Origin: Escherichia phage ECP2309 | DNA: 64,000 bases | Sequence record: PP464953.1 | Strand: one strand, 5' to 3' | Notes under the pieces: generated by a model | What the model was told of the DNA's origin: nothing | Databases searched by the model: none | The model's input: only the letters and a program-made list of their open reading frames with translations | Position numbers and translations under genes: made by a program | Shown: positions 40,238 through 61,077 of the stretch, piece after piece | How positions within the stretch are numbered: position 1 is the first letter of the stretch | Layout: each line of letters begins with the position of its first letter

Positions 40238-40270
40238 TGACAGGGGCCATTGGCCCCTTCTGGAGTTTTA

Positions 40271-41731: not shown

Positions 41732-41746
41732 GAGAGGATGTTATTT

Positions 41747-42267: not shown

Positions 42268-42268
42268 T

Positions 42269-42502: not shown

Positions 42503-42518
42503 CAAAAAGGAGATAGCC

Positions 42519-43210: not shown

Positions 43211-43212
43211 TC

Positions 43213-43779: not shown

Positions 43780-43834
43780 AAGTGAGATATAAGGTGTTCA
43801 TGCACCTACTAACAATACAACAAGAGAGACTGAG

Positions 43835-44110
43835 ATGACGAAAGAAGAAGCTGACGTATTAGACTTTGCACTGGAGGCTACGCAAGAGGCTCTGGTGTTA
43901 GCTTGGAAAATGAACCAGCGTGCTGCAGAATGCAACCGCCGAATCAATGAGATCCTGGGCATGTCTATGTATGATTTCACCATGCATGCTGGAGAGATTC
44001 CTGAATTAACTGCTGAGATGAATGATCTTGACGATAAAATTAATATCATTCTGAAGACAGCAGAAACAACTCACCAAACCGCCCGTAAATTTATCAACGA
44101 GAAGGTGTGA
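43835..44110 (+). CDS. hypothetical protein
   Basis: track ORF 91 aa. Confidence 0.55.
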   Translation: MTKEEADVLDFALEATQEALVLAWKMNQRAAECNRRINEILGMSMYDFTMHAGEIPELTAEMNDLDDKINIILKTAETTHQTARKFINEKV

Positions 44111-44112
44111 AT

Positions 44113-44577
44113 ATGGACTACAGCTACTGCGGGGAAGAGGTCCCTTTTAACTACAGCAATCTTACCACAAGCAATCCATATGAGACACGCCACGGCACAC
44201 ACATCATTGCCATTGACTTTGATGGAACATTTAATGCGAGTCCTTTCATCTTCTCCCGCCTGATCAGGGACCTGAAGAAGGAGAGGTGGACAGTATACCT
44301 TGTGACTTTCCGATTCATTACTCAAGACAATGTGGACATTGAGTATTGGCGCAAGGAGCTTGATGTTGGTGTGTTTTATACTGGAGGTATTCAGAAGGCA
44401 GCCTATCTGGCGCAGTTTGATATCTACCCAGATATTTGGATTGATGATTCTCCGGCATGTATTCCGGCTAAAAATCAGTTAGAGTTTGCAATGAAGGAGA
44501 TCGAGTATAAGTCTGAGGCTAAGCGGAACGGATGGCCTTTTATTATTGAAGATTACCCAGATCCTGAACCGGAGTAA
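44113..44577 (+). CDS. HAD-superfamily hydrolase-like protein
   Basis: IIAIDFDGTF matches HAD motif I (DxDGT); ATG (M3) after SD GAAGGTG. Confidence 0.5.
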   Translation: MDYSYCGEEVPFNYSNLTTSNPYETRHGTHIIAIDFDGTFNASPFIFSRLIRDLKKERWTVYLVTFRFITQDNVDIEYWRKELDVGVFYTGGIQKAAYLAQFDIYPDIWIDDSPACIPAKNQLEFAMKEIEYKSEAKRNGWPFIIEDYPDPEPE

Positions 44578-44582
44578 GAGCC

Positions 44583-44753
44583 ATGAGGCGAAGATATCAT
44601 TACCTGATGTGGAAGTTATATCATGGTGCTGCTAAAGCTTACCGCACCGTGTTTAGTAATGACAATCACTGCATTATGTTACGCCTTGCCGCCATTGGAC
44701 ATCACAATGAGTGGATTCGTGCAATCGTAATAGGTGACAAAGATTTTAAGTAA
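44583..44753 (+). CDS. small hypothetical protein (56 aa)
   Basis: hand-translated MRRRYHYLMWKLYHGAAKAY...; SD GGAGTAAGAG. Confidence 0.35.
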   Translation: MRRRYHYLMWKLYHGAAKAYRTVFSNDNHCIMLRLAAIGHHNEWIRAIVIGDKDFK

Positions 44754-44783
44754 AGTATTGCTTTCTAGATGGAGACTGATTAA

Positions 44784-45164
44784 ATGTGCAAGTGTAAATC
44801 CTATAATTGGAAAGTGAAAGGTGCCAAGCATCAAAATGTTATCGTTGATGTGCCTAAAAAGCTCCGTGACGGCAAAAAACGTGTGTGCCTTGATAAGTGC
44901 ATGGCTAAGCCTATCATGAGTCTATGGGCGGCAGGATTGAAAACTCTAAACTGCTGCTGTGGTCATAACAAAGATGTTCCAAGTATCATTATCCCAGAAG
45001 ATGCAGACCCTAAAGCTTATGCAAAAATACTGACCCGCTACCCCAGCACCTTCCTGATCGGAAAATGGTGTCACGATGAACTTCAATGGTGGGTAGCATA
45101 CGGTAGTATAGGTACTGCTTTTGGCTTTCCAGCCCTGTCAGAGCGCTACGTAAAAGTGTCATAA
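44784..45164 (+). CDS. Cys-rich protein
   Basis: track ORF 126 aa; SD GGAGA. Confidence 0.55.
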   Translation: MCKCKSYNWKVKGAKHQNVIVDVPKKLRDGKKRVCLDKCMAKPIMSLWAAGLKTLNCCCGHNKDVPSIIIPEDADPKAYAKILTRYPSTFLIGKWCHDELQWWVAYGSIGTAFGFPALSERYVKVS

Positions 45165-45270
45165 TCGATTTTAAGGCCTCAAACGAGGCCTGTGCCTTCA
45201 TAAATTGTCCTACCCTATGTGATTACCCACCCTGAACAAAATACCTCTCCAAAATCGTTTAAAATTAAGC

Positions 45271-45299
45271 TTGACCCCAACATCAGATCTATGTATGAT
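45271..45299 (+). promoter_or_regulatory. sigma70-like promoter TTGACC-N17-TATGAT
   Basis: read on plus strand about 30 nt upstream of SD GAGGAG and ATG at 45330. Confidence 0.55.
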
Positions 45300-45329
45300 T
45301 ACCTCACCAACCAAACAGAGGAGATCGTC

Positions 45330-45737
45330 ATGAACAATCTTGCAGATGTAAATGTCGAAATTGTTAAACTAAAGTTCTTGGGCTTTCGAGACCCTTATTC
45401 TTTAACAGCTATACTAATGGACACTCACTTCACACCAGGTAAAGAGTACACAGCCTTCCGTTATATTTGTGGAGATCACGAATCAGCTTATAGTGTGAAT
45501 ACAAACCTCGGCGAGGGATATTTCATCAGAGATATCACAGATCACTTATGGGGAATGTGGGAGTTGGTGGAAGAAGAGAATAAATCCCTTCCTAAAGAGA
45601 TTTGGGTGCACACCTTCCACACAGGTAAGTTTGGAGGTACGGAACATAAGTCTATCCACTATGATGAAGAAAGTGCCATCAAACAACAAGCTGTGCTTGG
45701 TGGATCTGTAGAAAAATTTTTTAAATGCGAGGACTGA
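45330..45737 (+). CDS. hypothetical protein
   Basis: track ORF 45219-45737 (GTG) trimmed to ATG (M38) with SD AGAGGAG. Confidence 0.55.
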   Translation: MNNLADVNVEIVKLKFLGFRDPYSLTAILMDTHFTPGKEYTAFRYICGDHESAYSVNTNLGEGYFIRDITDHLWGMWELVEEENKSLPKEIWVHTFHTGKFGGTEHKSIHYDEESAIKQQAVLGGSVEKFFKCED

Positions 45738-45740
45738 GAA

Positions 45741-45941
45741 ATGGCTGATTTTTGTAAAGATTGCTCTGAAGAGTTGTTTGGCTTTGACTGCAAAGATTTG
45801 GAAGGTCTGATCACTGAGGATCAGTGGAAGGAAGGCTATGCAGCACCTGTTATTTGTGAAGGTTGTGGCTATACCTATGTTGACCATAAAGGTAAGCGCG
45901 TCAAGCCGTCTGAAGATGGGGCATGTTGGGAGTATTACTAA
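45741..45941 (+). CDS. Cys-rich zinc-binding-like small protein
   Basis: CKDCSEE...CEGCGY; SD GAGGA. Confidence 0.5.
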   Translation: MADFCKDCSEELFGFDCKDLEGLITEDQWKEGYAAPVICEGCGYTYVDHKGKRVKPSEDGACWEYY

Positions 45942-45949
45942 CTATAAAA

Positions 45950-45979
45950 AGAAAGGGGCCGTTTGGCCCCTTTTTATTT
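45950..45979. terminator. bidirectional rho-independent terminator at the convergence of plus and minus operons
   Basis: GGGGCC-GTTT-GGCCCC flanked by A-run upstream and TTTTTATTT downstream. Confidence 0.75.
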
Positions 45980-45987
45980 ACCCCTTG

Positions 45988-48900
45988 TTAACGAGAAAAG
46001 GTTGCGTAGGCTTCTAGACGATACTGCTGGTCACCAGGGAACATAACACCTATAGAGGCTGTCCCTAGAATCCTGCCTTCCCTTCCAGACTCCATTCTGA
46101 ACCCTACCCATCCTGAACTCCTTGCAGCCTCGATGTTGTCGCTATACCCGAAAGTGGCAAGATCGTCAACACCAGCCCCAAACAGCAACTGAAGCTGACT
46201 TCTCGGAAGCCCTATAATTTCAGGAATATACGCACCAAAGTACACCATCTGCCCTACCTTAGGACCGCTGCCGTACTCCATCGGTTTGCTTGTAGAGAAA
46301 GTCTTCATACCAGAAGTACCTGCCGGATTAGGGTATGCCCCGTTTGTTGCTGTACCTATCCACATTCTCCACTGTGGTGCCATCTGTTTAACAGTAAAAG
46401 ATGTTGAGGACGTTTTGCGGCCTGCATCATCTGTAACTACAAACTTTATGGTGACATTCCCAGTAGCTTTAAATGTTACCAGTCCTGTGGTAGCATCCAC
46501 TGTTGCAATGTTGGTATTGCTACTTTCCCAAGTCTTTCTAATCCCAGATACGTTGGAAGGGGTAATAGAAGGTTCCTGCATCTGCAGTTTACCGCCCACA
46601 ATCCCTATGCCGTTGCCAGGATTATACAGTGCACCAACCTCGTCTATAATGTTCCCTGCTTTGAGACTATACTTCCTTGAGAAATTGTAGGTTCCGTTAT
46701 AAGTGTGTGTCCCTGAGAAGGTGACATCTGCCTTCCCGTAAGAGATGCAAACCAACGCATACTTCCTGTCAGGCAACGTTTCTCCAGTCTCTGGGTGAGT
46801 TTTACCTACCTGGAACACACTCGGGTCAGTAGAGTCGTGACTATCACTAACGGAGCTTGGACCGCCCATCAACTGTGACAAACAATTCCTTACCCATGTC
46901 CAGTTATTATCGCTGGAGAAGTCCACAGTCAAATCAAACACAACCCACTCATTTGGCTTCCACACAGGTGTTGTAATGGACTTGCCTACACCACCTCCTT
47001 GGAGTGTTGCCGACTGTTCAGTGATCAGGGCCGCATAGGCCAGAGTTCCTAAACTCAGAGTCTGGCTTGCTGTCCTCACTACCTTAGAATCAGCATCTGT
47101 GAAGTTGTTGATGATTTGGAATGTGCCATAAGTGTTTTTACAGGTAATTCTGGCGTTCAGTGTGTCAATCTTCCTCACATCTGCCATAGCAGTGTTAGAC
47201 ACAGAGAAGTCAGAAGCTTTAGCTGAGTTTGCCGCAACAGCAGGATCAACGTTAAGAGTTGCGTTGAACTGACAAGCAGGAGTAACCAGTAGCTTGTTAT
47301 CACCTATTTGCTTCCATGAAACACTTTGAACAGGGAGATTCCATTTAATACCTGAGAAAACCTTAGCAACCCTTGGCCCCAAAGCTCCAGTCCTGTTGTC
47401 TTTACAGCACATAGACATGGTGATCGTTGACGGAGTGGCCTGACCAAATAATTGCTGTGCTTTTGCAGAGGACATAGTGTAGAAATTGTCCTTAACAAAC
47501 TCATCAGCAGCTAAAGATCCATCAGCTCTCCACCACTGAACCTGATACCCTGTTTTGTCCCAACCACCGACCTGCTTCAAGTCCTCCCAGGAGATTTCCA
47601 GATCCCCGGTGGTAGGATTGATTGCAGCAGTTCCTGGTGTTCCAGATGACCATATTGGAATATCGAACCACGCTGGTTTAACCGACTGCACTGCGCTGGG
47701 ACCTATTGCGGCAGCAAGTTGCTGGCCCATCAATACGCGAGCATCTTTCACCAGACCCCACTCAATCATAGACCCAGAGTAACCTTCTTTCTTGTAGGCT
47801 GAGGATCCGTTCAAATGGATGAGTCGGCTTGTGCCAAAGTTATGTGCTCCACCACCGTTGTCGTCTGCAAAATTGGTTATGATTCTGTCCCTGATATTTT
47901 TCCATGCCCTGCCTCCAATCTCGTAGTCATGGTCATAACATCTTTGCAGTGTTGTCCAGCAAATGATCGCCATCCTTCTACCATTGCTGAAGCCAAAGGC
48001 CTGATCGTTAAGCTCTCTCCACAAGTAGCAGTTGGTGGTCCACATGGCCCTATGAATGTTAAACCAGTTTATAGATTTGGCTGAGTTGTTCCACTGAGTC
48101 CCAGGTAATTCAGGCCATACTGCATTAACCAGCATGTCTTCTGTTCCTGCATCAACCAAGAACCCTCTCACCTTCTTACCCATGCCTACCCTATCTTTTG
48201 CAATCCAACTGCCAAACAATCTCAGTTTTGGACCGTAGACAACATCTTCCGGATGCTCAAAAGAAATATATTTTAGGTATATTGTAGGGTCACCATAGGT
48301 GCCATCACAAACAGCTTTGTGCATGTTCTCACCAAGGTCTAGACGAAGTCCTGTTACAACTCTAGACGTGTCGGTGAATTTGTCTGTTAAATCAAACTCA
48401 TACCACCACCAACCTGCACCCAACAATACTTTCTTACAACGCTGTGCATCTGTATCAGATATTCTCTTATCGCCTGCAAAAGGTGAGTCAGCAAACTGAT
48501 AGTGCAGAGCAACCTCAAAAGGATGTGTGGATGTCCCGTTTTCTGCAAGAACTTGTTTACCTATCAGGTCGCACTTAATGATCATCACAACACGTTTGTA
48601 TCCGTTTGTTACCGGAATTTGCATGGACATGGATGTCCCATCCATGTTTGATCTCAGTGCAGTCATGATGATATAAGGGTCAACGGCATTGCCCAAAGTC
48701 TCAGGACCGGGGATTATCTTATACTTCTTGACCTGCCCCATGATGTAGTCACTTGCGTAAGTTGCCTCATTCAAGCAAGATCCTCCACCAGGTAACTCAC
48801 CAGGTCCCCAGAAAAATGCGCCGTAACAGTTGTAGAACCACTTGTTAGGATCGTATTTATTCTTGAAGGTCTGAACCTCGTTGGCCTGTTTTGTCAAGAA

Positions 48901-51624
48901 AACCTGCGTGTCTGTGAAGATTGCAGGGTTTACTCTCGCCTGTCTTGGAGGGTAACCTGTAGTTTGGTTAAACCACAAATTACAAGAGTAATCCCTCATA
49001 TAGTCATAATCAGAGTATTTGTTTACATCTTCGTTCCAACACATGTTTAGGTTGGTACCGCCCATGCATACAATATATTCTGCGACATACTTATCACTTC
49101 TGGTAGGAATACCTATGAACCATCTGTTAACAGGCTCATCCCAAGCTGTGCGCTCATCTTTAACGCAGATAGCAATCCAGTCATGTGTTCCTGTTTTCTT
49201 GCACACATCTCGCTTCATACCATAGTAGAACTCTTTAGTATTCGGCTCAGGTGCATTTATCAGGTAACTCCATGCCTGATTTGCATAAGTTCCATTGGTG
49301 CGTGGATCATGATCAAAGGCATACATGATGATCCTTTCCCCACCAAGATGTTCGCCAAGAGTAACTTTGACATTCACATCGCCGTAACCATTGCGAACAA
49401 CATCCATATTGTCAATAGAGATGCCTCTGGGAGTGTAGGCAATCTTCAGCGAGTTATCCTCACTAGTGCCACCAAGTGTAATCCCTATGTTGTTTGTTGT
49501 CCCGTCGGCATATCTTACTGTGGCTTCCCAGCGTATTCCGAAATATCCTGCATCATGGCTAACAATTTTCAGTGTACGAGCACCAGAGTTAGGTTTTCCA
49601 GGATCAGGCCAAGGATTTGGATGTTCATGGACAGTCAACGATGTCCCGTTTTGCTCGTTGACCTGCAACATTTTACCGCCTCTGCCGTTAGGGTTGAACT
49701 CCCACAAGGCTTGTGTTTTCACAATATTGTCATACGTGGTACGTCTCTGATCGTAGATCTCCTGAGTCACATCGTAGGTTACAGACCCGGCATCCATTCT
49801 ATGGAGTCGTACTATATACGATGTATCGCCTTCTACAGCAGGTTGAGCTGCGTTAAGCCCGAAGTATACAGTATCGTTGACATGGAACTGTTTGTTTCTA
49901 CCGACAGTATGCCACTTGCCGTTGGACGGGTACGCTGGGACGATAGTGTTCCAGTTCAAAGTCCTTGTTGTGTGGGTTCTGCCTGTGCCATGTTTGTCAT
50001 GATAGGTTATTTTTACAGAGTACAGTCCACGTCTGTTAACATTTCTGTTATATTGGGTAACAACAACTTCGTTGGCCCCGCCGTGGTTCCAGTTGGTGGA
50101 GAATTGGTAATTTGCATCTGTAACAACCGTGCCTGCAGCATTTACCAGTTCAATCTTGTCAATAATGAACGTAGCCCCCTCTGGCTGAGGCTTCAATTTC
50201 ATCTTGACCGTGTCACCAATGTAAATATTGCTAACGCTGCTAACACCGTTAACTTCGAAAATATCATCAACACCCCAACTGTCTACTGGGACATTTTTAT
50301 ACCAATTCTCAGGAACCTCTGTGAACCCCTGGCTATTAAGTCTGCCGCCAAACAGGTTGTTAGATCCTGCAAAACTTCCCCTTGGGATGCCTGACCACCA
50401 AAGTTTACCATTAACAACAGTAAAGGTTCCTAAGAAACCTTCTCTGTGGATGCCTTGGAAATAAACACTCTCTGTCCAGCTAACTGGCAGGCGTTGCTCA
50501 ACATATTTAGCTGTAGCAAGAGCTTGATAGTGGATAAAATTAGCCCTAGGGCTATTGTTTGCAGATTGTGCACCAATATCATTACACAAGTTGCGAGAGA
50601 ATCCACGATACTGTTTAGTGCCATTATTGAAGAAAATGCCACTTGTGCCATATCCACGAGCCATTATCACCTCATGGGTGTAGGTGATATTTAAGGAACG
50701 CCATGTGTCATCTCCCCAGACGTCTTGCCCGTAGAATACGTTAACAAGCTGCTGGTCATTGGGTTTGTGCATCCTCTGTGTGGCAATTATTGCCCCGTTA
50801 GGGCCACACATAAACCCTTTCCACTCCTCATCTGCAGGAATGCCCCTCAAATCGTTACGAGTAATCTGCACAGGGGGCCAAACAAGGTCGTTTCTACTGT
50901 TATTTCTCAGAAAGTCGTATCCAGCAATCCAGAAACCCCTAGGACCACCGAAAATAACAGAATTGTCATGCACCTCGCAGTTGATGCTTGGGTTTTTCCA
51001 AGGTCCTGTTTCAGGATTTTCCGATGTCTCACCAATCTTCACAGGGGTTGCATGCTGATTTTTATCTACATGTAAAGATCCGTAGGTGTTGTTACCAGAT
51101 CCATACAGGTTAAGTATGCCAGTACCTTCTGCCTCTGCAATAACCCAGACAGTGTTGTTAATACCGCCCATCACCTCAATAAGGCGTTCTGGGTGGGTGT
51201 CAAGGTGCAATCCTTTAACAATCTGCTCTGGGAGTGGTGTCCACTCGTTTACGCAAACATCATTACCGCCTGCAGCAGTGGATCCGATAAGACCTGCAGT
51301 GCAGCCGATGTAGAAAAACTGGTTATCAAAAGTCCGGATCACAAACGCGCGGTCTGCTCTCCACACATGATCAACATTCCAGGCTGTTTCGCTCGGATAG
51401 TTTATAGGGCTACGATCCCCAGTGCGGCACTCTCCGAACTTGTTATAGCCGGTAATATTAAGCTGACCATCATCAAAAAGTATAGCTAAGCTATTTACAT
51501 AGGATACTGTGTTGCTTGTACCATCACTGTTGTCTATTGGGTATGACAGAACAGCAAGTTCCTTAATTCCACCCCTCTTATCGAGGAAATGACGACCAAG
51601 TTTTAGCAAAGGGATTGGAAGCAT
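45988..51624 (-). CDS. giant virion structural protein (tail/fibre-associated) with Ig-like segment
   Basis: 1878 aa; last gene of the virion module; segment TWESSNTNIATVDATTGLVTFKATGNVTIKFVVTDDAGRKT resembles a bacterial Ig-like (Big_2) repeat. Confidence 0.75.
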   Translation of the reverse strand: MLPIPLLKLGRHFLDKRGGIKELAVLSYPIDNSDGTSNTVSYVNSLAILFDDGQLNITGYNKFGECRTGDRSPINYPSETAWNVDHVWRADRAFVIRTFDNQFFYIGCTAGLIGSTAAGGNDVCVNEWTPLPEQIVKGLHLDTHPERLIEVMGGINNTVWVIAEAEGTGILNLYGSGNNTYGSLHVDKNQHATPVKIGETSENPETGPWKNPSINCEVHDNSVIFGGPRGFWIAGYDFLRNNSRNDLVWPPVQITRNDLRGIPADEEWKGFMCGPNGAIIATQRMHKPNDQQLVNVFYGQDVWGDDTWRSLNITYTHEVIMARGYGTSGIFFNNGTKQYRGFSRNLCNDIGAQSANNSPRANFIHYQALATAKYVEQRLPVSWTESVYFQGIHREGFLGTFTVVNGKLWWSGIPRGSFAGSNNLFGGRLNSQGFTEVPENWYKNVPVDSWGVDDIFEVNGVSSVSNIYIGDTVKMKLKPQPEGATFIIDKIELVNAAGTVVTDANYQFSTNWNHGGANEVVVTQYNRNVNRRGLYSVKITYHDKHGTGRTHTTRTLNWNTIVPAYPSNGKWHTVGRNKQFHVNDTVYFGLNAAQPAVEGDTSYIVRLHRMDAGSVTYDVTQEIYDQRRTTYDNIVKTQALWEFNPNGRGGKMLQVNEQNGTSLTVHEHPNPWPDPGKPNSGARTLKIVSHDAGYFGIRWEATVRYADGTTNNIGITLGGTSEDNSLKIAYTPRGISIDNMDVVRNGYGDVNVKVTLGEHLGGERIIMYAFDHDPRTNGTYANQAWSYLINAPEPNTKEFYYGMKRDVCKKTGTHDWIAICVKDERTAWDEPVNRWFIGIPTRSDKYVAEYIVCMGGTNLNMCWNEDVNKYSDYDYMRDYSCNLWFNQTTGYPPRQARVNPAIFTDTQVFLTKQANEVQTFKNKYDPNKWFYNCYGAFFWGPGELPGGGSCLNEATYASDYIMGQVKKYKIIPGPETLGNAVDPYIIMTALRSNMDGTSMSMQIPVTNGYKRVVMIIKCDLIGKQVLAENGTSTHPFEVALHYQFADSPFAGDKRISDTDAQRCKKVLLGAGWWWYEFDLTDKFTDTSRVVTGLRLDLGENMHKAVCDGTYGDPTIYLKYISFEHPEDVVYGPKLRLFGSWIAKDRVGMGKKVRGFLVDAGTEDMLVNAVWPELPGTQWNNSAKSINWFNIHRAMWTTNCYLWRELNDQAFGFSNGRRMAIICWTTLQRCYDHDYEIGGRAWKNIRDRIITNFADDNGGGAHNFGTSRLIHLNGSSAYKKEGYSGSMIEWGLVKDARVLMGQQLAAAIGPSAVQSVKPAWFDIPIWSSGTPGTAAINPTTGDLEISWEDLKQVGGWDKTGYQVQWWRADGSLAADEFVKDNFYTMSSAKAQQLFGQATPSTITMSMCCKDNRTGALGPRVAKVFSGIKWNLPVQSVSWKQIGDNKLLVTPACQFNATLNVDPAVAANSAKASDFSVSNTAMADVRKIDTLNARITCKNTYGTFQIINNFTDADSKVVRTASQTLSLGTLAYAALITEQSATLQGGGVGKSITTPVWKPNEWVVFDLTVDFSSDNNWTWVRNCLSQLMGGPSSVSDSHDSTDPSVFQVGKTHPETGETLPDRKYALVCISYGKADVTFSGTHTYNGTYNFSRKYSLKAGNIIDEVGALYNPGNGIGIVGGKLQMQEPSITPSNVSGIRKTWESSNTNIATVDATTGLVTFKATGNVTIKFVVTDDAGRKTSSTSFTVKQMAPQWRMWIGTATNGAYPNPAGTSGMKTFSTSKPMEYGSGPKVGQMVYFGAYIPEIIGLPRSQLQLLFGAGVDDLATFGYSDNIEAARSSGWVGFRMESGREGRILGTASIGVMFPGDQQYRLEAYATFSR

Positions 51625-51672
51625 TGTGTTCTCCAGATAAGAAAACCGCCCCGTCAGGAGCGGTTAGATATA

Positions 51673-53418
51673 TTAACGTTGTGCAATTACTACGTCTACG
51701 ATATCACCAACACCACAATACGTTAATTGCAGCAAGGTAACACTGTTAGCCTTGTTGTTAATAACAGGTGTTGCCGACAGGATAGCATACTTATCGTGCA
51801 AAGTCACGTTGTGACCTACAGCATCCTGAATTACATAGATAACCGCAGTGAATGGATAAGGTTTATCTTCCGCTGATGTCCCAGGCCACTGTCCTATTGT
51901 AAAATCCCCTTTCGCGTGAACAACATACATACTGGCCTGCCCGTTAGGTGTCCATGTCCCACTGGACGCGTCAACCTCCTCTAAATCAAAATCTACCTTT
52001 CCTGCGTGGAAAGTAGGGGCAGTAATGGTTTTACCCGCCTCAATTTCTTGAGAGGTGGTTATCTTGCCACTGGAGTTAATGCCATTACAGACAAAGTTGA
52101 CATTAGAGAAGTCAGGCAACCACCCAGTCACCGTGCCGGATATTTCAAGGTTGTGAACAGAGGTGGTGCCAGTCCCTGCTGCGTTTAAACTGACATCTCC
52201 ATTTACCTGCAAGTTGCGGGTAACGTTGCAGTTTTCAGAGTTTGCAGTTGTTGCAGTTAAAGTGGTTGTTGTCAGCTCGGTAATTACACCTTTGTTGGCT
52301 GTAAGCCCTTCTCCTTCAAAAGTTGCACGCTCATTGACTCTTAAGGTATTCAGAGCTATGTTTTGGATAGAGGCCGTACCTCGAATAACTACAGACCCGC
52401 CAATCTCCAAATCGCCATTTATCAATGCATCACCAGTGCTTTCAATATAGCTAGGATAGATCATGGTGCCATCGACAGAGTATGTTATCCCTGTAACGGT
52501 ACCTGTCACCTCAAGGTTCTTAACCCTGGTGGTCCCATCGACCTGCAATGTCGGTTCGGTTGCTGCCTTCATGGCATTACCACGAATGTACACGTAGTCA
52601 AAAAAGTTATTACCCAGACCATCAAAATGCACATCGTTATTATTAGCCACTGGTTTCCCAGAAGTTATAGTGTCAGCTATAACCCTGTGGGTGGACACTT
52701 CATGAGGTTGCAGCTCTGTACTTCTCCAGTCTGCATGCTTAGGATCGCTCCACGCAAAAGTAAGTGTAGAAGTATTTGCCGTGAGGATTAGATTCCTAAA
52801 GCGTGCAGTAGAATCTGCCCCATTAACAGGTCCATGTAAGGTAAGGGTGCCACCAACTATAGTGTTAGCGAGTTCTGTAAGACCTTTTACCACCAAAGAT
52901 CCTACAGTAACTTTCATCCCCTCCATGGCTTTAAATATGCTATCAACATAGTCAACAACAAACTCTGTGTTTGCTATGGACTCTGACTTATCGTCCATTG
53001 GAGGTGTAGGTACTCGCGGGTCACCTTCGAACCTTGGGCTGTTAAGTTTTGCGTAGTATTTTGCCATTACTGCAGAGTCGGTGTATAATCTCCAGTTTGG
53101 AGATTGTGAAGGATCTGCTGGCATTCTAACCGGGTTAGATTTTGATGCTGCTGGGGCGTACCACCACTGAGTGCCTGTATCCCCTTTAAACTCATACAAC
53201 TGGTTAAAAACTGTTGTGGATGCACCATACGCCCAAGGGATTGGTGGCGTTTTAAAATAAAGGGTGTCAAGCATGGCTTTTCGTACCGTAGGGATAGTGG
53301 TCCCATCCTCTACGACAACTTCATCCACAGCGTTACCGTTGACAATCAAGTGCAAACGTTCAGAATCAACAATTACTTGATCTACCGCCTGCTCGAAGCT
53401 TGTCATGTCTTGCGCCAT
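51673..53418 (-). CDS. tail fibre / tailspike-like protein
   Basis: 581 aa; long T/N/G-rich beta-strand-like repeats; position in the fibre cluster. Confidence 0.6.
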   Translation of the reverse strand: MAQDMTSFEQAVDQVIVDSERLHLIVNGNAVDEVVVEDGTTIPTVRKAMLDTLYFKTPPIPWAYGASTTVFNQLYEFKGDTGTQWWYAPAASKSNPVRMPADPSQSPNWRLYTDSAVMAKYYAKLNSPRFEGDPRVPTPPMDDKSESIANTEFVVDYVDSIFKAMEGMKVTVGSLVVKGLTELANTIVGGTLTLHGPVNGADSTARFRNLILTANTSTLTFAWSDPKHADWRSTELQPHEVSTHRVIADTITSGKPVANNNDVHFDGLGNNFFDYVYIRGNAMKAATEPTLQVDGTTRVKNLEVTGTVTGITYSVDGTMIYPSYIESTGDALINGDLEIGGSVVIRGTASIQNIALNTLRVNERATFEGEGLTANKGVITELTTTTLTATTANSENCNVTRNLQVNGDVSLNAAGTGTTSVHNLEISGTVTGWLPDFSNVNFVCNGINSSGKITTSQEIEAGKTITAPTFHAGKVDFDLEEVDASSGTWTPNGQASMYVVHAKGDFTIGQWPGTSAEDKPYPFTAVIYVIQDAVGHNVTLHDKYAILSATPVINNKANSVTLLQLTYCGVGDIVDVVIAQR

Positions 53419-53427
53419 GATTTCTCC

Positions 53428-53694
53428 TTAAGCTTTTTGCTCTTCGTTTTTAACGTGGTCAGGGTGCTGGCAACCCCACCGGAGCGAGATGAATTTGCTA
53501 ATAAGCTGGGGGCAGGCTACTGAAGGTGCATATATCCACGCATACCATTCAGGAAGCGTATCATTATACCCCATATGAATAAACACCCCAGTCATCACCG
53601 CCATGCCTATGTTCGACCATAGCTTAGATTGGGATACTTTCGTAGGGTCATCAGATGCCGCAACCAGTCCCCATAAAAACTGAGTTAGTTTCAT
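53428..53694 (-). CDS. small protein with one hydrophobic helix
   Basis: track ORF 88 aa. Confidence 0.45.
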   Translation of the reverse strand: MKLTQFLWGLVAASDDPTKVSQSKLWSNIGMAVMTGVFIHMGYNDTLPEWYAWIYAPSVACPQLISKFISLRWGCQHPDHVKNEEQKA

Positions 53695-53705
53695 TTACCC
53701 TCTTT

Positions 53706-54752
53706 TTAAGCATAAGATATAGTGATCCATTGACCGTTTACAAGTTTTTGGATAGCACCTGTCCAGTAATCACCTTGATAAGGGTGTTTATAAGCGTAGT
53801 TACCAGAGCACATCACATGTCCAGGGTAGACTCTTGACTCTCTGTAGGTGGTTTTGAAACGGTTTGCTATCCTTACATCGTCAACCCCTCTACTGGGCAT
53901 AGGGACAGTAAGGTTACCACTACCGTCTGCGCTGTTACCGTTTACCCTGCGGACCACGTTTCTTCCACCAACGGTTGCATATTGGCCTCTAACGGTTTCA
54001 TCGTTACAATCAACTCTTCCACCTATTTGAGCGCTTCCGCAGGATTGTTGTCCGTTAACAGTGGCTCTTGGTATCGTGACCGCATTGGCATTTGCAGAGG
54101 AACTTTTTGCATCGTTGCATTCAAGATTTCCTTGGATAGCCAGTCTTGCACGGTTGGCAGTTATAGCATTGAGCTTCATAGCCGAAAACACAGGCTGCCC
54201 ACCAGAAGGTTGAAATCTCCAACGGAACCCGTCTATTTGGTGAGAAGGATCATCAAGGTCTGTGCCGTCAGCACCACCGATGTTGTCCATAATCCAGAAA
54301 TCCATCGTCGTCTTGTCTGGCGTTATGGTGGTATATATTGCCGCACTGTCTGTTGACGCAGATGCAAACTCGATTCTTTGGAGACCTAAAGTTTGAGTCT
54401 GAGTCATTATGTCTCCAGACTTGTCAACATATAGATCGTCCATTTCTTCAGGTGAGTATACATTGAGAACTTGACGTGCAGCAGCTTTGTCTGGAACGTC
54501 TGCTAGATTATTAGTGACCCTTAAGAATCTATTATCCCATCCTGGGACAACATCTTCTGTTAAATGCTTCAACCACGCAGAAAGCATGTGAAGTTCAAAG
54601 TTAACAACTTCACATGCCATTCTTTGTGTCATATCCCAACCTTTCAATCTCTCTTCTTTTTTTGGTTGAGACTTATTCAACTCTCCCGTATTTTCAAGCA
54701 CAACATCCTGATTGGCCCAAATATCAAGAGGGATAACTGGTTTAGTCATCAC
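53706..54752 (-). CDS. tail fibre protein, paralogue A
   Basis: 348 aa; N- and C-termini shared with 55764-56804 (...QKLVNGQWITISYA). Confidence 0.7.
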   Translation of the reverse strand: MMTKPVIPLDIWANQDVVLENTGELNKSQPKKEERLKGWDMTQRMACEVVNFELHMLSAWLKHLTEDVVPGWDNRFLRVTNNLADVPDKAAARQVLNVYSPEEMDDLYVDKSGDIMTQTQTLGLQRIEFASASTDSAAIYTTITPDKTTMDFWIMDNIGGADGTDLDDPSHQIDGFRWRFQPSGGQPVFSAMKLNAITANRARLAIQGNLECNDAKSSSANANAVTIPRATVNGQQSCGSAQIGGRVDCNDETVRGQYATVGGRNVVRRVNGNSADGSGNLTVPMPSRGVDDVRIANRFKTTYRESRVYPGHVMCSGNYAYKHPYQGDYWTGAIQKLVNGQWITISYA

Positions 54753-54794
54753 GTTCTCCTGAGAAAATTCCTTAGGACTATTTTAACACTTTAG

Positions 54795-54828
54795 AGAACA
54801 AAATGCAAGAACGGAGTCCTTTCCGTTC
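54795..54828 (-). terminator. terminator-like hairpin
   Basis: GAACGGA-GTCCTT-TCCGTTC followed on minus strand by CTTGCATTTTGTTCT. Confidence 0.45.
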
Positions 54829-54838
54829 TGACCTTTGT

Positions 54839-55153
54839 TTACCTTTTACTATGCTCTACGAGCATGTGCAAAATCTTTTGTACATCAGCTCGGATGCCGG
54901 AGACATCTGTCCTGACATCCTGCTTAAGGTCGTTAATATCGGCCTCTAGCTTGCTTAACCGGGTCTCGATAACGGAATCAAGTCTATCTTTTGTAACCAT
55001 ACTGTTTTTCACTAAGATGAGGTCTTTCTCCAGTTCATCCAACCTCTGGGAAATGCCTTTCCATTTGGTGTGCCACTGGTTGAAAGCCCATACACAGATC
55101 GGGACAACGGTACCCATACAGATACCGTACAATGCCGCCAAATCCAACTCCAC
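54839..55153 (-). CDS. membrane-anchored coiled-coil protein
   Basis: track ORF 104 aa; N-terminal hydrophobic helix then heptad-like region. Confidence 0.5.
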   Translation of the reverse strand: MELDLAALYGICMGTVVPICVWAFNQWHTKWKGISQRLDELEKDLILVKNSMVTKDRLDSVIETRLSKLEADINDLKQDVRTDVSGIRADVQKILHMLVEHSKR

Positions 55154-55164
55154 AACACCTCCTC

Positions 55165-55749
55165 TTAGAGGGTAGGTCGCTCCGGGAAGAAAATGTCAGG
55201 GGCTTTAGATGTATCTATTTCAAGAAGTTTTACCCTGTACATTTTCAAATCTCTGATGTTACGTTTCTGGTCATCAGTAAGATCATATTCAAGGTCAATC
55301 ATGTCTTGATAGGCACCAATTCTAGCAGTAGCCCAAGCAAGTTCTGTCTCTATGACACCCTCTGCCTGTTGAACAAAGAATTCATTGTCTGTGACAAATT
55401 CATCACCAACTAAACGCAAAGCGTCGTGGTGAAGCATAATGTTTTCTGGTACCTCTTCTTTTTTGGCGATAACCACACGAAGACCTGGAGCAGGCCATAA
55501 GGCATCAGGTTCTTCTGTAGATGTCTTAAGAATTCCCTTCTCGTCAACAAGTAGGAAGATACAACCTGGATTTTCTTGTCGCAATGTTCGTGACTGCACA
55601 TACCAATCGCCATCATCATTACGTAAAAAATACCCAGTGTATGCGGTGTAATCCTCAACCTCTTGAGGGGTCAGCTCCTTGGTTTCCTTGTTGGCGTGGT
55701 ATTCGCCAGATCCCGGTTGGTAAAGTTTAAACTCTTGAAGTATTTTCAT
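55165..55749 (-). CDS. tail fibre assembly chaperone (Tfa family)
   Basis: C-terminus ...KMYRVKLLEIDTSKAPDIFFPERP matches the conserved Tfa C-terminal pattern. Confidence 0.8.
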   Translation of the reverse strand: MKILQEFKLYQPGSGEYHANKETKELTPQEVEDYTAYTGYFLRNDDGDWYVQSRTLRQENPGCIFLLVDEKGILKTSTEEPDALWPAPGLRVVIAKKEEVPENIMLHHDALRLVGDEFVTDNEFFVQQAEGVIETELAWATARIGAYQDMIDLEYDLTDDQKRNIRDLKMYRVKLLEIDTSKAPDIFFPERPTL

Positions 55750-55763
55750 GCTAGTCCTCCGAT

Positions 55764-56804
55764 CTATGCATAATTAACAGTGATCCATTGACCGTTTACA
55801 AGTTTTTGTAAAGGTCCTGCCCAGTAAGTTGAACCACGCATCTCTTTTTTGTCACCGAAATGCCAGCCTGTGACAACGTAGCCGTTGCGGATTGGAGATT
55901 CAGAAACGCCGTCCACAAGTCTTGCACCGATTCTGATGTCTTGCACACCTGTCTGCGGGATAGTGATCGTTACATCACCGTTACCGTTAGCCGTCACTCC
56001 GTTCACAGAGCGAACCACATTTCTGTTACCGACAACACAGTGCTGGCTTCTTACAACCATACTGTCACAACTTGCACCACCATTAACATATACTGACCCA
56101 GCCGTCAATTGACTAGCCACATTGCAGTTGGTGAATGTTGCTGTATTACTGATAGTAAGGTTATTACACCTCATGTTATCGACAACTTCAACATTGCCTA
56201 CCACTTTCAACAGCGCACGGTTAGCCGTGATCGCGTTAAGGTACATCAAAGTGAACTCTGGATTAATATCCGGCTGAGTTGGCTGGAATCTCCAACGAAA
56301 CGCATCTACTGTAGATGTACCGCCATCATCAAACGACCCGGTATTATCACTTAACCCAAAGTCGAGAGTTGTCTTATCTGGGCCAATAGTCGTCTCTATC
56401 CAAGCCTTATCTGTCTCGGCAGCTTTAAAGTTGATACGTTGCAAACCCAAGGGGCCTGTCATTGTATCACCTGTAACTTTTACATACCTGGCGTCTGCCT
56501 CTTCCTTGGTAATAATCCCAAGGTTTCTACGGGCAACAGGGATGTTCAAAAGATCACTCAAGTTATTATCACGTACCAGATAACGGCCTTCTTGAGCGGG
56601 GATCTGCTCGTCAGCAATATATTTTGCCCAAGTTCCGAGCATATTGAAAATATAGTTAAGTTCTTCACATGAGGGCTTTTGACCAAGATCCCAACCTTTT
56701 CTCCACAAATCATCAATCGGGCGTAGCCTGTTCTGTCTGTGGGTGTTAGGCAGAACCTGATCCTCCTCTGCCCAAATCTCTAATGGAAAACTAGGTTTTG
56801 ACAT
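55764..56804 (-). CDS. tail fibre protein, paralogue B
   Basis: 346 aa; shares termini with paralogue A; followed directly by the Tfa gene. Confidence 0.7.
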   Translation of the reverse strand: MSKPSFPLEIWAEEDQVLPNTHRQNRLRPIDDLWRKGWDLGQKPSCEELNYIFNMLGTWAKYIADEQIPAQEGRYLVRDNNLSDLLNIPVARRNLGIITKEEADARYVKVTGDTMTGPLGLQRINFKAAETDKAWIETTIGPDKTTLDFGLSDNTGSFDDGGTSTVDAFRWRFQPTQPDINPEFTLMYLNAITANRALLKVVGNVEVVDNMRCNNLTISNTATFTNCNVASQLTAGSVYVNGGASCDSMVVRSQHCVVGNRNVVRSVNGVTANGNGDVTITIPQTGVQDIRIGARLVDGVSESPIRNGYVVTGWHFGDKKEMRGSTYWAGPLQKLVNGQWITVNYA

Positions 56805-56816
56805 TTTATCTCCTGA

Positions 56817-58889
56817 TTATGAGAAGTCTGGCGGGACAACATCTTCTACATACCCTTTCAGAGCAACCTGCCCCATATGAAGCACGGTAGAATCTCTAGC
56901 GGTAACAGTGATGCTGTCAGACATTACTTGCGGGTATGCCCACACATACTGTTTTACCTCAGGGTATCTATACTCTATAGTTGCCATGTTTCCGCAAATA
57001 CATCTCCATAAAAATTCTTGGTAATTCCTAGTTGGGTCATAGCCATATACCGGAGCAAGCTCTTTACTAGGAACGAACCCTGCAAGGTATTGTATTTCAG
57101 ACGGTTGCCAACCTAACCTAACGATAGGTATGTTTACAGACTCTTTTGCCTTTTCAATACCTCCCTGCATCACCCAATCGTAGCACTCGGTGCAGAAGAA
57201 ATCAAGAGCACCTGCTTCCTTTTTATATTGGTCAGCAAGGTTCAGCTTTTGTGTAAGCTCGGTTTCCATAATGGTTGGGAAAAACAGCAAAGCTGTCATC
57301 TGAGCTGATGCAGCGTGTGCCTTTACTGCCTTTGAAATAGCCGCAATACGAGCGCCAAGCTTACCACGACAAAATGCCACATACTTGTCGTAAACACCGC
57401 CAGTTTTAGGATCGTCAATAGTCCCAATATCTAATGCATACTCACCTGTCTCATCATAAAACGCCTGCTTTGTAGGGTAATCATAAATACAAGGCCTACG
57501 AGTATCGGTATTGTACCACCACCACGGTTCACCAACCTGCATAATCACTGGCAGGTTGTTTCTCATAGCGGCTGATGCAAAATTCTTAAATACTGCAGTA
57601 AGGAAATTCATACCCTCTTCAATGGTTGGAGATAGGAGGTAGCTACAAGGTGTATACCCTGTTTTAGCGTAGTTATCGTTCCAGTCTCTTTGGGTCCATT
57701 CCAACGGGCAGGCATCGCTGAAAAGCTCAAAACTTACAGATTGCATAACGTCGAAGTTATGTCGTTTGGCATTGTACATAAAATCATCATGCCATTTATA
57801 AGCTGCAGCGTTTAGCGCTCCTGTTCTGTTTATAGACCATTGGGTTCCGGACCATGTGTAGTCATAATAATGACTCATACCAACATAATGGTTTATGGTT
57901 CCGGTATATCCCAGACGCTTGATATTGTTCAACACCCTTAAAGGAGAGACGTTCCACATATCGTCATATGCGGTGCAGATCCCAACGTCGTGCTCTCTCA
58001 CCTGAATATTATTAAGTTGCATCATTTTCCAGCCTGTGTCTGGCTGAAGCAAATCTAGGCGCAACTCACACTCTACATTTTCCGTTCTCGGGTCTGTGCT
58101 ATTACTTACCCAGTCTTTAGGCATGAGTGGTATTAAAATCCTTCTCACCTGCCGAGGATCAACACCCATCATGTTGTTGTTCTGGTCCATCCCGACGCAG
58201 TCCTCGAAATCAATATGAATTTCTGCAACATTCTTATCCTCTGAGATGCTGACAGCATATTGAGCTAAAGGAACATAGATGATTGTGCCATCAACAAGGT
58301 CTACAGTCATAATCATCTTTTCAGGAGTGGAGAAGTTGCTGGCGTTGGTTATTGACATTCTGAACCAAAGTTTGGTGTTTCTCATCTCATAGTGATCATC
58401 AAACCCAATACCGAAATGGTCATACTTGTCAACTGTTTCCCAAATGCATCCAGCCATACCCCCATATGTTCTTGACACTAAACGGTTAATACAACAGTTG
58501 TTATCTGCAACAATACAGGTACTTTCAGTCTGCTGAGTAGTTGTAACCCAATATCTTGGGTGGAACATTCTCTCCTCGACAGTATCCCAAGATATCCTGT
58601 CAAGATTCTCATCTGAAACTATTGTACATTTCGCCCTTTGTGTCCCGATCATCACCCCTTGAGATTTTGATGAAAACTCCATAAAGAAGCTTCTTGGCAA
58701 CCTGTTGGGTAATTTGTCAACAATTTCCACCGGAATCTCAATACTGGTTGCCCCGACTGGGATAGTTACATCGCCCTCAACATGATCATAATCCCTACCA
58801 GGAACGGCAGTATCCTGAACTGTGCGGTAATGAAACTGCGCAGCCATTGTAGAGTAATCACGGTAAGGTTTAAAAACAGCTGTTGCCAT
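56817..58889 (-). CDS. virion structural protein (baseplate/tail)
   Basis: 690 aa; position between baseplate-like genes and fibre genes. Confidence 0.6.
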   Translation of the reverse strand: MATAVFKPYRDYSTMAAQFHYRTVQDTAVPGRDYDHVEGDVTIPVGATSIEIPVEIVDKLPNRLPRSFFMEFSSKSQGVMIGTQRAKCTIVSDENLDRISWDTVEERMFHPRYWVTTTQQTESTCIVADNNCCINRLVSRTYGGMAGCIWETVDKYDHFGIGFDDHYEMRNTKLWFRMSITNASNFSTPEKMIMTVDLVDGTIIYVPLAQYAVSISEDKNVAEIHIDFEDCVGMDQNNNMMGVDPRQVRRILIPLMPKDWVSNSTDPRTENVECELRLDLLQPDTGWKMMQLNNIQVREHDVGICTAYDDMWNVSPLRVLNNIKRLGYTGTINHYVGMSHYYDYTWSGTQWSINRTGALNAAAYKWHDDFMYNAKRHNFDVMQSVSFELFSDACPLEWTQRDWNDNYAKTGYTPCSYLLSPTIEEGMNFLTAVFKNFASAAMRNNLPVIMQVGEPWWWYNTDTRRPCIYDYPTKQAFYDETGEYALDIGTIDDPKTGGVYDKYVAFCRGKLGARIAAISKAVKAHAASAQMTALLFFPTIMETELTQKLNLADQYKKEAGALDFFCTECYDWVMQGGIEKAKESVNIPIVRLGWQPSEIQYLAGFVPSKELAPVYGYDPTRNYQEFLWRCICGNMATIEYRYPEVKQYVWAYPQVMSDSITVTARDSTVLHMGQVALKGYVEDVVPPDFS

Positions 58890-59575
58890 TAACCCTCCTG
58901 TCTAGTTGCGTTTACTGTAATACTTTCACAATAAATGGTTGTGGTGTCCCAATCAGGTCTTACGTCAGGAACATACAGCAAAGTAGCCAGCCCACCAACT
59001 CCGAATTGGTTTTCTTCCCACACTGATCCGAAGCCAAGAGCTGTATGGTCCCCTTCAAAACCAAAAGCTTGCCCTTGCGATTCTGTAAGACGCAAATGAC
59101 AAGGCAATGGTAGCATGTCTAAGATCTGATCGATAGACTGCAATATGTCAAAGCAAGTTTTTCTAATATTTATGTCAAATCTGAAGTTGTCTCCTTTCCA
59201 CGTATCGAAATTGTCCCTTCCGAACAATTGTCGCAAGGTGGAGATGACATCTTCGCGAGTCCCACCCCTTGATGCTGCGGCCTGCTGAATAATCAGCGTG
59301 GCACGAAAATCAGCATCTGAAAGTCCATTCCTAAGAATACCAAGTTGATTACCAACTTCGTCAAGGTATCTTCCGCTAGCATTGTTAAGCAATCTTCCTT
59401 CAGCCAAACCTACCAGCATCTTATCAACATCCTCCAACCTTTTAAGGTACACGGTTAAGAATGTGACCAAATTAACCTTCTCAGCCAGAAAATCTCCAGG
59501 CAGGTAGTCAAGACCTCCCTGAACAAAATCTGGCAGAGTGTGGATGTGGTTAACATCCGACTTAATCTCTGCCAT
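58889..59575 (-). CDS. baseplate/tail protein
   Basis: 228 aa; ATGA-coupled to neighbours; assignment by position and loose resemblance only. Confidence 0.45.
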   Translation of the reverse strand: MAEIKSDVNHIHTLPDFVQGGLDYLPGDFLAEKVNLVTFLTVYLKRLEDVDKMLVGLAEGRLLNNASGRYLDEVGNQLGILRNGLSDADFRATLIIQQAAASRGGTREDVISTLRQLFGRDNFDTWKGDNFRFDINIRKTCFDILQSIDQILDMLPLPCHLRLTESQGQAFGFEGDHTALGFGSVWEENQFGVGGLATLLYVPDVRPDWDTTTIYCESITVNATRQEG

Positions 59576-59586
59576 ATCTCGCCGCC

Positions 59587-61077
59587 TTAAATAGTTTGTT
59601 GGAAAGTTATATTACTTTCGTCGAGGTCAAACACCTCGGTCATGTTCGCAACAATATCGTTTGTAGTGTAAGCTTCATCAGAAGCTCCTACTGGTTTAAC
59701 TTGAATTACCAGTCTATTAAATCTGCCTATTGACACAGCAGCAGATGCAGCACCGACCAATTGGATATTATACAACGTATCTGCAACATCCAGTCCGTTA
59801 ACAACCTGTAAAAGAGCCTCTACAATGGCATCTTTTTCGGTTGTGGAAAGCGCAGCACCAGAGTAGGTAATTCTTACATCCAGGCGGTAGGTATTTGCCT
59901 TGGAGTAATAAATTCTTTCAGTTTGACCGTCAGATGTAGTGACATCGTAGAAAATATTACCATAAGTCCTGTTCGTACAGGCTATAGTTTGGTAAAGTGC
60001 TTGGCAAATGTCCTCCGTTGCACCACCAAACACAACCACTTGGAACTTGTAAGGAGGTATACCTTTAGCATCAGTTTTATCGGTGTTGTTGGAGAACACT
60101 CTCACTTTCTCAACACCTTTCACCTCGCTTACAGCGCTAAGGATTGCAGGACGGGTAGCCTTAGATGTTAACTGTTTTGTGCTGGAAGCTCTTAAGCGAT
60201 ACTCTGAGTCTTTCTCAACATCTCTGCCCTCATTGAATCTTTCTCGGTTGGTAAGTTTGATAAATCCACTAGGGGTAGGTGACATTGTTGTCACGGTTTC
60301 TGCCTCTCTTGACAGCTCACCAGCCTCGTTAGCGATAACATCCAGGGTGATAGTTCTTTCTCCTACAATCGGGGATACTCTGAAATCTACCCTGCTATTA
60401 AGTCCAACTTGATCAAGATTCGAATTGTACCCTATCCACAACGTTCCTGTCAACATATCGATCTGAATCAAATCGTCGTTCAACAGGGTTGTATTATCGA
60501 CAATGAACTGCTTAATCTCTCCGTAAAAGCTTGGCAGATCAGAGGAGTCCAGAGCCTTATCTGTTAAAACCAGACTTTTTGTTTTGATACTTCCGTCTGT
60601 CTGGTTGGTAATTTGAAAGTTGTATTTCCCAATTCTTAGGTCTGGAGCGTTTATTCTGTGAGCAATAAGATTTCCAGCCACCTGCACATCGTTGCTAAGA
60701 ACAAAGTTGCCACTGTCCAGCGTATAAGTTTTGGAATCATAAATCATATTGTACGGCACAGTTGTGTTGATTGTCAACTGGCAGGTACCTGATGATTTAG
60801 AACGGCCTCTTCGGTAAATACCCTGCCTTCCAAGAAGCTCATCCAGGTAAATACCTTCTGCCCCATACAGCGTCTGTGATGCGTATACAGATGCTGCCAT
60901 AAGAATAAGTTGATATTCTCGCTCGTTGAAAATAGTGGTCAGCTTATCTGCAACTGAGTTACTCTGTACGTTGAAGTTTTCGCCAAAAGCACGGATCAGG
61001 CTTTGCTTAGTTTCAACGATTAGGTCATTTAGGGTTGGTATAACGAAACCAGCCTCTGTCAATCCATACTTAGCCAC
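59587..61077 (-). CDS. baseplate protein (possibly J-like)
   Basis: 496 aa; assignment by position and loose N-terminal resemblance. Confidence 0.45.
   Translation of the reverse strand: MAKYGLTEAGFVIPTLNDLIVETKQSLIRAFGENFNVQSNSVADKLTTIFNEREYQLILMAASVYASQTLYGAEGIYLDELLGRQGIYRRGRSKSSGTCQLTINTTVPYNMIYDSKTYTLDSGNFVLSNDVQVAGNLIAHRINAPDLRIGKYNFQITNQTDGSIKTKSLVLTDKALDSSDLPSFYGEIKQFIVDNTTLLNDDLIQIDMLTGTLWIGYNSNLDQVGLNSRVDFRVSPIVGERTITLDVIANEAGELSREAETVTTMSPTPSGFIKLTNRERFNEGRDVEKDSEYRLRASSTKQLTSKATRPAILSAVSEVKGVEKVRVFSNNTDKTDAKGIPPYKFQVVVFGGATEDICQALYQTIACTNRTYGNIFYDVTTSDGQTERIYYSKANTYRLDVRITYSGAALSTTEKDAIVEALLQVVNGLDVADTLYNIQLVGAASAAVSIGRFNRLVIQVKPVGASDEAYTTNDIVANMTEVFDLDESNITFQQTI

Follow-up and report, generated by a model that had tools for sequence, protein, structure and literature searches.

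The rV5-like phages of the genus Vequintavirus encode two short tail fibre paralogues and one chaperone, which is an already known and conserved feature of the group. In rV5, gp30 (347 amino acids, aa) and gp33 are 42.3% identical and similar to T4 gp12 by HHpred; both were detected in the virion proteome together with the tail fibre assembly (Tfa) protein gp32, and two receptor specificities were proposed for them (Kropinski et al. 2013, PMC3606486). Homology of the short-fibre locus with that of phi92-like phages, where the fibre is single, and ultimately with Mu GpS/GpU has been described, and its fibres were seen to be without considerable allelic variation (Maffei et al. 2021, PMC8594841). 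We analysed the same locus in a stretch of 64,000 nucleotides (nt) from Escherichia phage ECP2309 (sequence record PP464953.1), referred to below as the window. It carries on the minus strand the short tail fibre gene STF-B (55764-56804, 346 aa, orthologue of rV5 gp33), its paralogue STF-A (53706-54749, 347 aa, rV5 gp30) and, between them, the only Tfa gene of the locus (55165-55749, 194 aa, rV5 gp32). These proteins are at least 98-99% identical in phage V5 and the BASEL Vequintaviruses. The distribution of divergence over anchor, shaft and tip, the replacement of a 157-aa gene by the second fibre and the concerted evolution of the tips are undescribed in the two rV5 papers. The best explanation of the locus as a whole, which we regard as probable, is that it encodes two Mu-S-type short fibres and one Mu-U-type Tfa, with distinct anchors, concerted evolution at the 3' ends and both fibres mounted on the virion.

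The locus resembles the S-U and S'-U' pairs of phage Mu in that the STF-B tip aligns to the ends of Mu S and S', Tfa belongs to the Pfam family of Mu U, and two fibre variants are present per genome. Residues 286-343 of STF-B matched residues 440-501 of Mu S, the end of the 504-aa protein (5yvq; E=1.7e-6), and the 61-aa tip alone still matched Mu S (E=2.6e-4) as well as Mu S'. However, Mu expresses one variant at a time through Gin-mediated inversion of the G segment, with an N-terminus that is constant and shared and with one chaperone gene per variant, whereas the window holds two complete genes on the same strand with their own N-termini, a single chaperone gene and no inverted repeats, and both products occur in the virion. 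The relationship with phi92 gp147, the phiTE short tail fibre and SSE121 gp042 lies in the homologous anchor and in the order of a fibre gene followed by genes for Tfa and a 104-aa protein. Residues 1-108 of STF-B matched the phiTE fibre (9cuy) with E=1.4e-19, and the N-terminus of STF-A with E=1.9e-8. In the cryo-EM structure of phiTE (9cuy), fibre residues 3-92 form the joint docking on the wedge protein (wedge 1), and in phi92 six trimers of the single homologue, gp147 (fiber III), sit on the wedge protein and point downward. These phages have one copy of the fibre; a second one, whose anchor has diverged, is present in Vequintavirus and two sister lineages. T4 gp12 is a functional analogue, being a baseplate-attached trimeric fibre that binds the core of lipopolysaccharide (LPS). 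No gp12 chain was among the PDB phmmer matches at E≤1 for either fibre, and the link is the HHpred similarity given in the literature. T4 has a single gp12, and its chaperone is gp57A, not a Tfa.

A first-pass annotation, made from the sequence of the window, had placed two tail-fibre reading frames on the minus strand here, and both are real. Each matched phrog_4465 over the full profile (1-342/342) with E<1e-165 (1.8e-171 for STF-B and 2.7e-166 for STF-A), which bears out their identity as tail fibres, and both are annotated as 'short tail fiber protein' (BASEL record MZ501054 for STF-B). The start of STF-A needed correction, from a GTG at 54752 to the ATG at 54749, which has the ribosome-binding site AGGAGA-N5-ATG, gives 347 aa and is used in all GenBank records. 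STF-A and STF-B were 43% identical over their full length by BLASTP (E=1e-95), and the homology was continuous. When tested alone, the anchor (aa 1-110) showed 39% identity with E=6e-25, the shaft (aa 111-280) 46% with E=5e-39, and the last 70 aa, which contain the tip, 42% with E=5e-16; the A tip proper (aa 287-347) was 45% identical to the B tip. The similarity of the two ends is thus significant, but the earlier picture of shared termini around a variable middle could not be maintained: similarity is highest in the middle (46-52%) and lowest in the anchor (38-39%), whose first ~70 aa had been singled out as shared. In 20-aa windows the identity was 55% at the extreme N-terminus, ~30% at aa 20-100, 50-65% at aa 100-215 and 261-280, ~25% at aa 215-260 and 300-340, and 76% over the last 17 aa. 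The shared C-terminus was confirmed in a shorter form, since only these last 17 aa stand out (13 of 17 identical, with the common motif QKLVNGQWIT(V/I)(N/S)YA) rather than ~20. The codons for QKLVNGQWIT form the longest exact DNA match between the two genes, a 30-nt tract (55779-55808 in STF-B and 53721-53750 in STF-A, minus strand); the next longest shared run is 12 nt. The C-terminal strand itself is common to Mu-S-type fibres, including Mu S, Mu S', the phiTE fibre and the SSE121 fibre, and is a family-wide motif rather than a mark of this pair.

The alignments point to a layout with an N-terminal baseplate anchor (about aa 1-110), a shaft (about aa 111-285) and a C-terminal tip (about aa 286-346) ending in PLQKLVNGQWITV. 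The STF-B anchor (aa 1-110; 56475-56804) is of the canonical type, homologous to residues 1-111 of the phiTE fibre, and that of STF-A (aa 1-110; 54420-54749) is of a diverged A-type. The B-type tip of STF-B (aa 286-346; 55767-55949) was delimited by the Mu S alignment, and the A-type tip of STF-A (aa 287-347; 53709-53891) is confined to the rV5-type lineage and a sister lineage represented by L009 to L012. A third, more divergent two-fibre lineage with the same architecture consists of L020 and four IMG/VR contigs of 118-141 kb (L021-L024). Across the three lineages, anchors in the A slot were 57-80% identical and B-type anchors 75-87%, and the identity between the two types was always 38-39%. 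By these comparisons, the anchors form two stable, distinct types in all three lineages.

The tips behaved differently from the anchors. In the window, the same codon was used at 10 of 12 identical residues within the last 17 aa versus 44 of 131 elsewhere (Fisher p=1e-3). The 30-nt tract of the L009 lineage differed from that of the window by four synonymous changes (CTG, GTC, AAT and CAG), and all four were present in both paralogues; phage pangalan likewise had AAT in both of its copies, and the tract was partly decayed in HMD-6 and ECP32. The single-copy gene of SSE121 has a closely similar C-terminal motif (LQYLINGQWVTV vs LQKLVNGQWITV) with different synonymous sites. The homogenization was more extensive in the L020 lineage, where the paralogues were 39% identical in the anchor, 49% in the shaft and 84% in the tip, and where lineage-specific residues occurred in both paralogues (RCGGMLIDG...VMRGW...YWAAPLQKLVNGQWITVQTL). 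The homogenized stretch there is ~165-190 nt long, and the five genomes (L020-L024) have differing mosaic tracts: the B haplotype switches to the A haplotype in mid-tip in the B gene of L021, and the B gene of L024 carries the A haplotype over ~50 nt, including a variant private to L024 and L022. The two copies thus evolve in concert at their 3' ends, over 30 nt in the window and the L009 lineage and over the full length of the tip in L020-type genomes, and the mosaic tracts and the changes shared by paralogues are a signature of recurrent short-tract gene conversion.

Two conserved blocks, VGGRNVVRxVNG...ADGxGN and PLQKLVNGQWITV, delimit the tip. B-like tips were also found in unrelated Salmonella phages, where the matches begin just after the first block, and over long timescales the tip therefore acts as a small module. 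The B-type tip is shared with the single fibres of SSE121 and Phapecoctavirus, at identities of 57-61% with the tip of SSE121 and 60% with that of nepoznato. The A tip was 93% conserved between the window and L009, with synonymous divergence (dS) saturated. The distal tail fibre genes of T-even phages, as reportedly described by Tetart and others in 1998, recombine between conserved motifs called 'His boxes'. The likeness is a variable receptor-binding segment between conserved blocks that permit homologous exchange; unlike in the T-even phages, the exchange here would take place between paralogues of one genome and would homogenize rather than diversify the tips. No prior report of concerted evolution of fibre tips was found in the searchable literature, and its contrast with the distinct anchors is a modest new detail.

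Comparison with other genera showed which of the two fibres is the older resident. A single short fibre gene is present in Seunavirus (SSE121, EspYZU15), Mydovirus (KpS8) and Henunavirus (Hena1). In SSE121, EspYZU15 and KpS8 the genes follow the order STF, Tfa, 104 aa, 157 aa, ~89 aa and a ~600-aa fibre, and Hena1 has the same order up to the 157-aa gene. STF-A occupies the slot of this 157-aa gene (L003, 5997-6470; L004, 5847-6320; L018, 5272-5745; L019, 5587-6060), which belongs to phrog_7451 and PF26221 (Phage_phiTE_239). No homologue of it was found in the window, and the phiTE structure paper is silent on this family. We considered whether the 157-aa gene might be a fibre remnant and rejected the idea, as it has no similarity to either paralogue (E≥1). 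STF-B was 53% identical to the SSE121 fibre vs 46% for STF-A. On the grounds of synteny and similarity, STF-B is the orthologue of the single Vequintavirinae fibre, and STF-B and Tfa are the ancestral pair. The A and B clades each had 100% bootstrap support across lineages, which indicates that the duplication is old and that STF-A is, by this phylogeny, an old extra copy. The STF-A gene of pangalan (L008) has an in-frame 9-nt deletion (344 aa; window ~54215-54223) and so loses three residues of the conserved shaft segment 'RWRFQPSGG'.

Both fibre genes are retained in all genomes of the genus, with conservation of at least 90% in ~115 phage genomes, and are under strong purifying selection. 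By tblastn, STF-B was at least 95% identical in 115 phage records, and STF-A at least 95% in 113 and 90-95% in 3; beyond those ~115 records the identity of both fibres falls below 60% in other genera. The ratio of non-synonymous to synonymous divergence (dN/dS) against isolates with dS~0.3 was 0.012-0.025 for STF-B and 0.068-0.084 for STF-A, so that STF-A evolves 2-3 times faster at non-synonymous sites, and the low ratios indicate that both genes are functional. When 1.84 billion representative proteins were searched exhaustively by HMMER for the A-type tip (70 aa), no other carrier appeared; the full set of matches was STF-A, STF-B, a 354-aa relative and a single match that was spurious and repetitive. 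The A-type tip is thus not a circulating module. A 78%-identical STF-A variant (P0002) was considered as an allele swap and discarded, as the whole locus of its sister lineage (L009-L012) is comparably diverged from the window (STF-A 78%, STF-B 87%, Tfa 78%, 104-aa protein 84%, 88-aa protein 90%).

These observations can be combined into a proposal for how the fibres work. The anchor types are distinct yet conserved, which fits two different binding partners better than one site. Both fibres would be mounted simultaneously, each through its own anchor, at two different docking positions on the baseplate, and virions would carry both fibre sets at once because the anchor types would dock at different positions. 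A single Tfa may nucleate the folding of both fibres at their shared C-terminal end; in Tfa itself, the Pfam match covers the conserved C-terminal domain. In this phage the A and B tips differ (45% identity), which makes two receptor specificities plausible, and the distinct tips may read two features at the level of the LPS core. In L020-type phages both fibre sets would bear the same tip; the near-identity of these tips suggests that a second set of fibres is kept even when it adds no further specificity. We tentatively put forward a joint reading, for which the odds seem to us slightly short of even, in which the distinct anchors represent two baseplate positions, the tips form a pool exchanged by gene conversion primed at the flanking blocks, and one Tfa serves both fibres because their C-terminal end is kept identical. 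If this is true, a lineage can have either two specificities (rV5 type) or a single one in double dose (L020 type). The practical value is modest and concerns phage engineering and host-range prediction, with fixed anchors and ~60-aa tips exchangeable between conserved motifs, and with an A tip type unique to this phage group. As rV5-like phages are common therapeutic and biocontrol candidates, it would be useful in practice to know whether gp30 and gp33 read different LPS-core features.

The main alternative to two docking positions is competition between the fibres for a single set of six docking sites, with virions that carry mixed or alternative fibre sets as a bet-hedging population. Both anchors are indeed homologous to the same N-terminal domain of the phiTE fibre, and the wedge and baseplate proteins of single-fibre relatives are about the same size. 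Nevertheless, we consider shared sites unlikely, since the anchor is the least similar region (38-39%) and yet each type is 57-87% conserved across lineages despite the homogenization of the tips. Selection on the tract itself, either at the nucleotide level (an RNA or DNA signal) or through a peptide or codon constraint, could also keep the 3' tracts identical without gene conversion. In its favour, QKLVNGQWIT does not vary as a peptide, and in both copies the start of the next gene follows the tract at a distance of 20-50 nt. This explanation is improbable, more so than shared docking sites: SSE121 encodes the similar motif with other synonymous sites, the four synonymous changes between lineages are identical in both copies, homogenization in the L020 type spans ~165-190 nt with mosaic boundaries that vary, and the two copies are followed by unrelated genes and spacers.

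The first-pass annotation had interpreted the pair as a host-range cassette of alternative receptor-binding fibres and had suggested looking for cassette swapping among related phages. The tips of this phage do differ, B-type tips occur in unrelated phages and so move over long evolutionary times, and the homologous Mu locus is an invertible switch. A Mu-type switch (Mu G or P1 C segment type) was nevertheless excluded, because the genes lie on the same strand and a search of the locus found no meaningful inverted repeats flanking the fibres, only 14-19 nt matches at chance level; nor do the genes annotated in the locus include an invertase. Neither switching nor swapping agrees with two proteins that are both present in rV5 virions, are near-invariant (at least 90% conserved) in ~115 genomes with dN/dS of 0.01-0.08, and include an A-type tip that occurs nowhere else. 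The cassette interpretation, whether as switched alternatives or as exchange between related phages, was accordingly given up as very improbable. Least credible of all is that STF-A is a redundant or decaying duplicate without a role of its own. It evolves faster than STF-B, as described above, and has no chaperone gene of its own, but its dN/dS is still 0.07-0.08, ~115 genomes and three deeply diverged lineages hold an intact copy, conservation of the tip is 93% with dS saturated, and the protein is found in rV5 virions.

Several points weigh against the preferred reading of two Mu-S-type fibres with distinct anchors, converted 3' ends and simultaneous mounting. STF-A has no adjacent Tfa gene, its downstream neighbour being the 88-aa phrog_1322 protein. 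The STF-A tip had no direct phmmer match to Mu S and is linked to it via STF-B (tip vs tip E=5e-16). The domain boundaries rest on alignments because the structural model was poor: an AlphaFold2 (AF2) monomer model of STF-A, built from a 7-sequence alignment, had a mean pLDDT (the per-residue confidence score) of 30.8. The phylogeny did not separate duplication within the lineage from acquisition of STF-A (bootstrap 32% vs 43%). L021-L024 are metagenome assemblies from a single sample, and artefacts of assembly may account for part of their mosaic; what the isolate genomes and L009-L012 show is independent of them. In the literature, one shared terminal receptor was favoured by Maffei et al. 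2021 (PMC8594841), and the published receptor genetics (waaG, waaF, waaY and nfrA/B required) do not separate gp30 from gp33. Nothing distinguishing the two fibres was found in the S144 paper or a 2026 receptor-prediction preprint, nor in the accessible part of a preprint on O157 using randomly barcoded transposon sequencing (RB-TnSeq).

The Tfa chaperone that the first-pass annotation had recognized between the two fibre genes was confirmed. The Pfam family PF02413 (Caudo_TAP) matched aa 121-192 with 45.8 bits against a cut-off of 22.1 (E=8.4e-12), and phrog_136 matched the full length (E=2e-36). It was also right that only STF-B is followed by a Tfa: the gap from STF-B to the Tfa gene is 14 nt, and a Tfa gene lies directly 3' of the single fibre in SSE121, KpS8, Hena1 and nepoznato too. 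Tfa diverges faster than STF-B, with 78% (L009) and 43% (L020) identity vs 87% and 74% for STF-B. Between the window and L009 its changes are concentrated in the first ~40 aa, though the fibre tips are conserved (A tip 93%). Mu-type Tfas remain on the fibre according to the literature.

Two further small genes belong to this part of the locus. The 104-aa protein (rV5 gp31; 54839-55153, minus strand; phrog_5345, E=1.8e-48) has a hydrophobic segment at aa 1-25 followed by a coiled-coil-like region; it is 32% identical to SSE121 gp044, which holds the same position, and was found in all relatives examined. The 88-aa protein downstream of STF-A (rV5 gp29; 53428-53694, minus strand; phrog_1322, E=2.7e-32) is annotated as a membrane protein and lies upstream of a 581-aa fibre gene. 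It is 56% identical to SSE121 gp046 and 70% to the L020 homologue, and a member of its family occurs elsewhere in the Phapecoctavirus locus. The earlier description of it as unrelated to Tfa holds, but it is not specific to STF-A. We rejected it as a chaperone dedicated to STF-A and do not regard it as a partner of that fibre, because relatives with one fibre have an orthologue of it. By their distribution, both the 104-aa and the 88-aa genes are ancestral members of the locus and not partners of STF-A.

Over positions 51000-59600 the window shows 100% identity with Escherichia phage ECP2303 (PP261279), an rV5-like Vequintavirus, and 97-99% identity with >100 rV5-like phages of the genus, with >110 records covering the locus. 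It is part of the conserved late structural cluster (baseplate and tail fibre) of these phages. The minus strand encodes the whole locus, and transcription passes from a 496-aa baseplate wedge protein through a 228-aa baseplate protein, a 690-aa fibre, STF-B, Tfa and the 104-aa protein to, after a gap of ~85 nt, STF-A, the 88-aa protein, the 581-aa fibre and an 1878-aa fibre. The order matches that of BASEL phage CarlMeissner, where both short fibres are annotated 'short tail fiber protein'. A terminator-like hairpin with a T-run is predicted in the gap between the 104-aa gene and STF-A (54808-54829, minus strand) from a consensus scan and RNA folding; the predicted fold of the gap at this junction has -24.4 kcal/mol and z=-2.8. 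A promoter may lie beyond the hairpin (~54780-54808, minus strand), since the record of phage Gotham has a PhagePromoter prediction at the equivalent position, just downstream of that of the hairpin.

Some observations were made on the surrounding genes. The 690-aa protein (56817-58889) combines Calx-beta with the N-terminal and TIM-barrel domains of the 'non-contractile tail sheath protein' (NCTSP), resembles N4 gp65 and is annotated as a glycosidase/deacetylase lateral fibre. Its gene lies between those of the baseplate protein and STF-B and is absent from this position in SSE121, KpS8 and nepoznato; the version in L012 has 664 aa. The 228-aa baseplate protein (58889-59575) is 63% identical to its 210-aa homologue in SSE121 and has an extra C-terminal extension of ~20 aa in those lineages where the 690-aa fibre gene is present as well. 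The 1878-aa Ig-like lateral fibre (45988-51624) is swapped for proteins of 475, 183 and 1209 aa in L009 (8124-11044) and for one of 1499 aa in L011, and it is here that the cluster has its truly hypervariable host-range gene, a point also made by Maffei et al. 2021. At ~38000-46000, GC skew and AT skew change sign, which suggests that the genes immediately upstream of the fibre cluster form a block encoded on the other strand. Finally, 16-21 GenBank records labelled 'Campylobacter phage' (MG0656xx, host C. jejuni) are ~97% identical to the locus at 51000-59600, and their host label seems doubtful.

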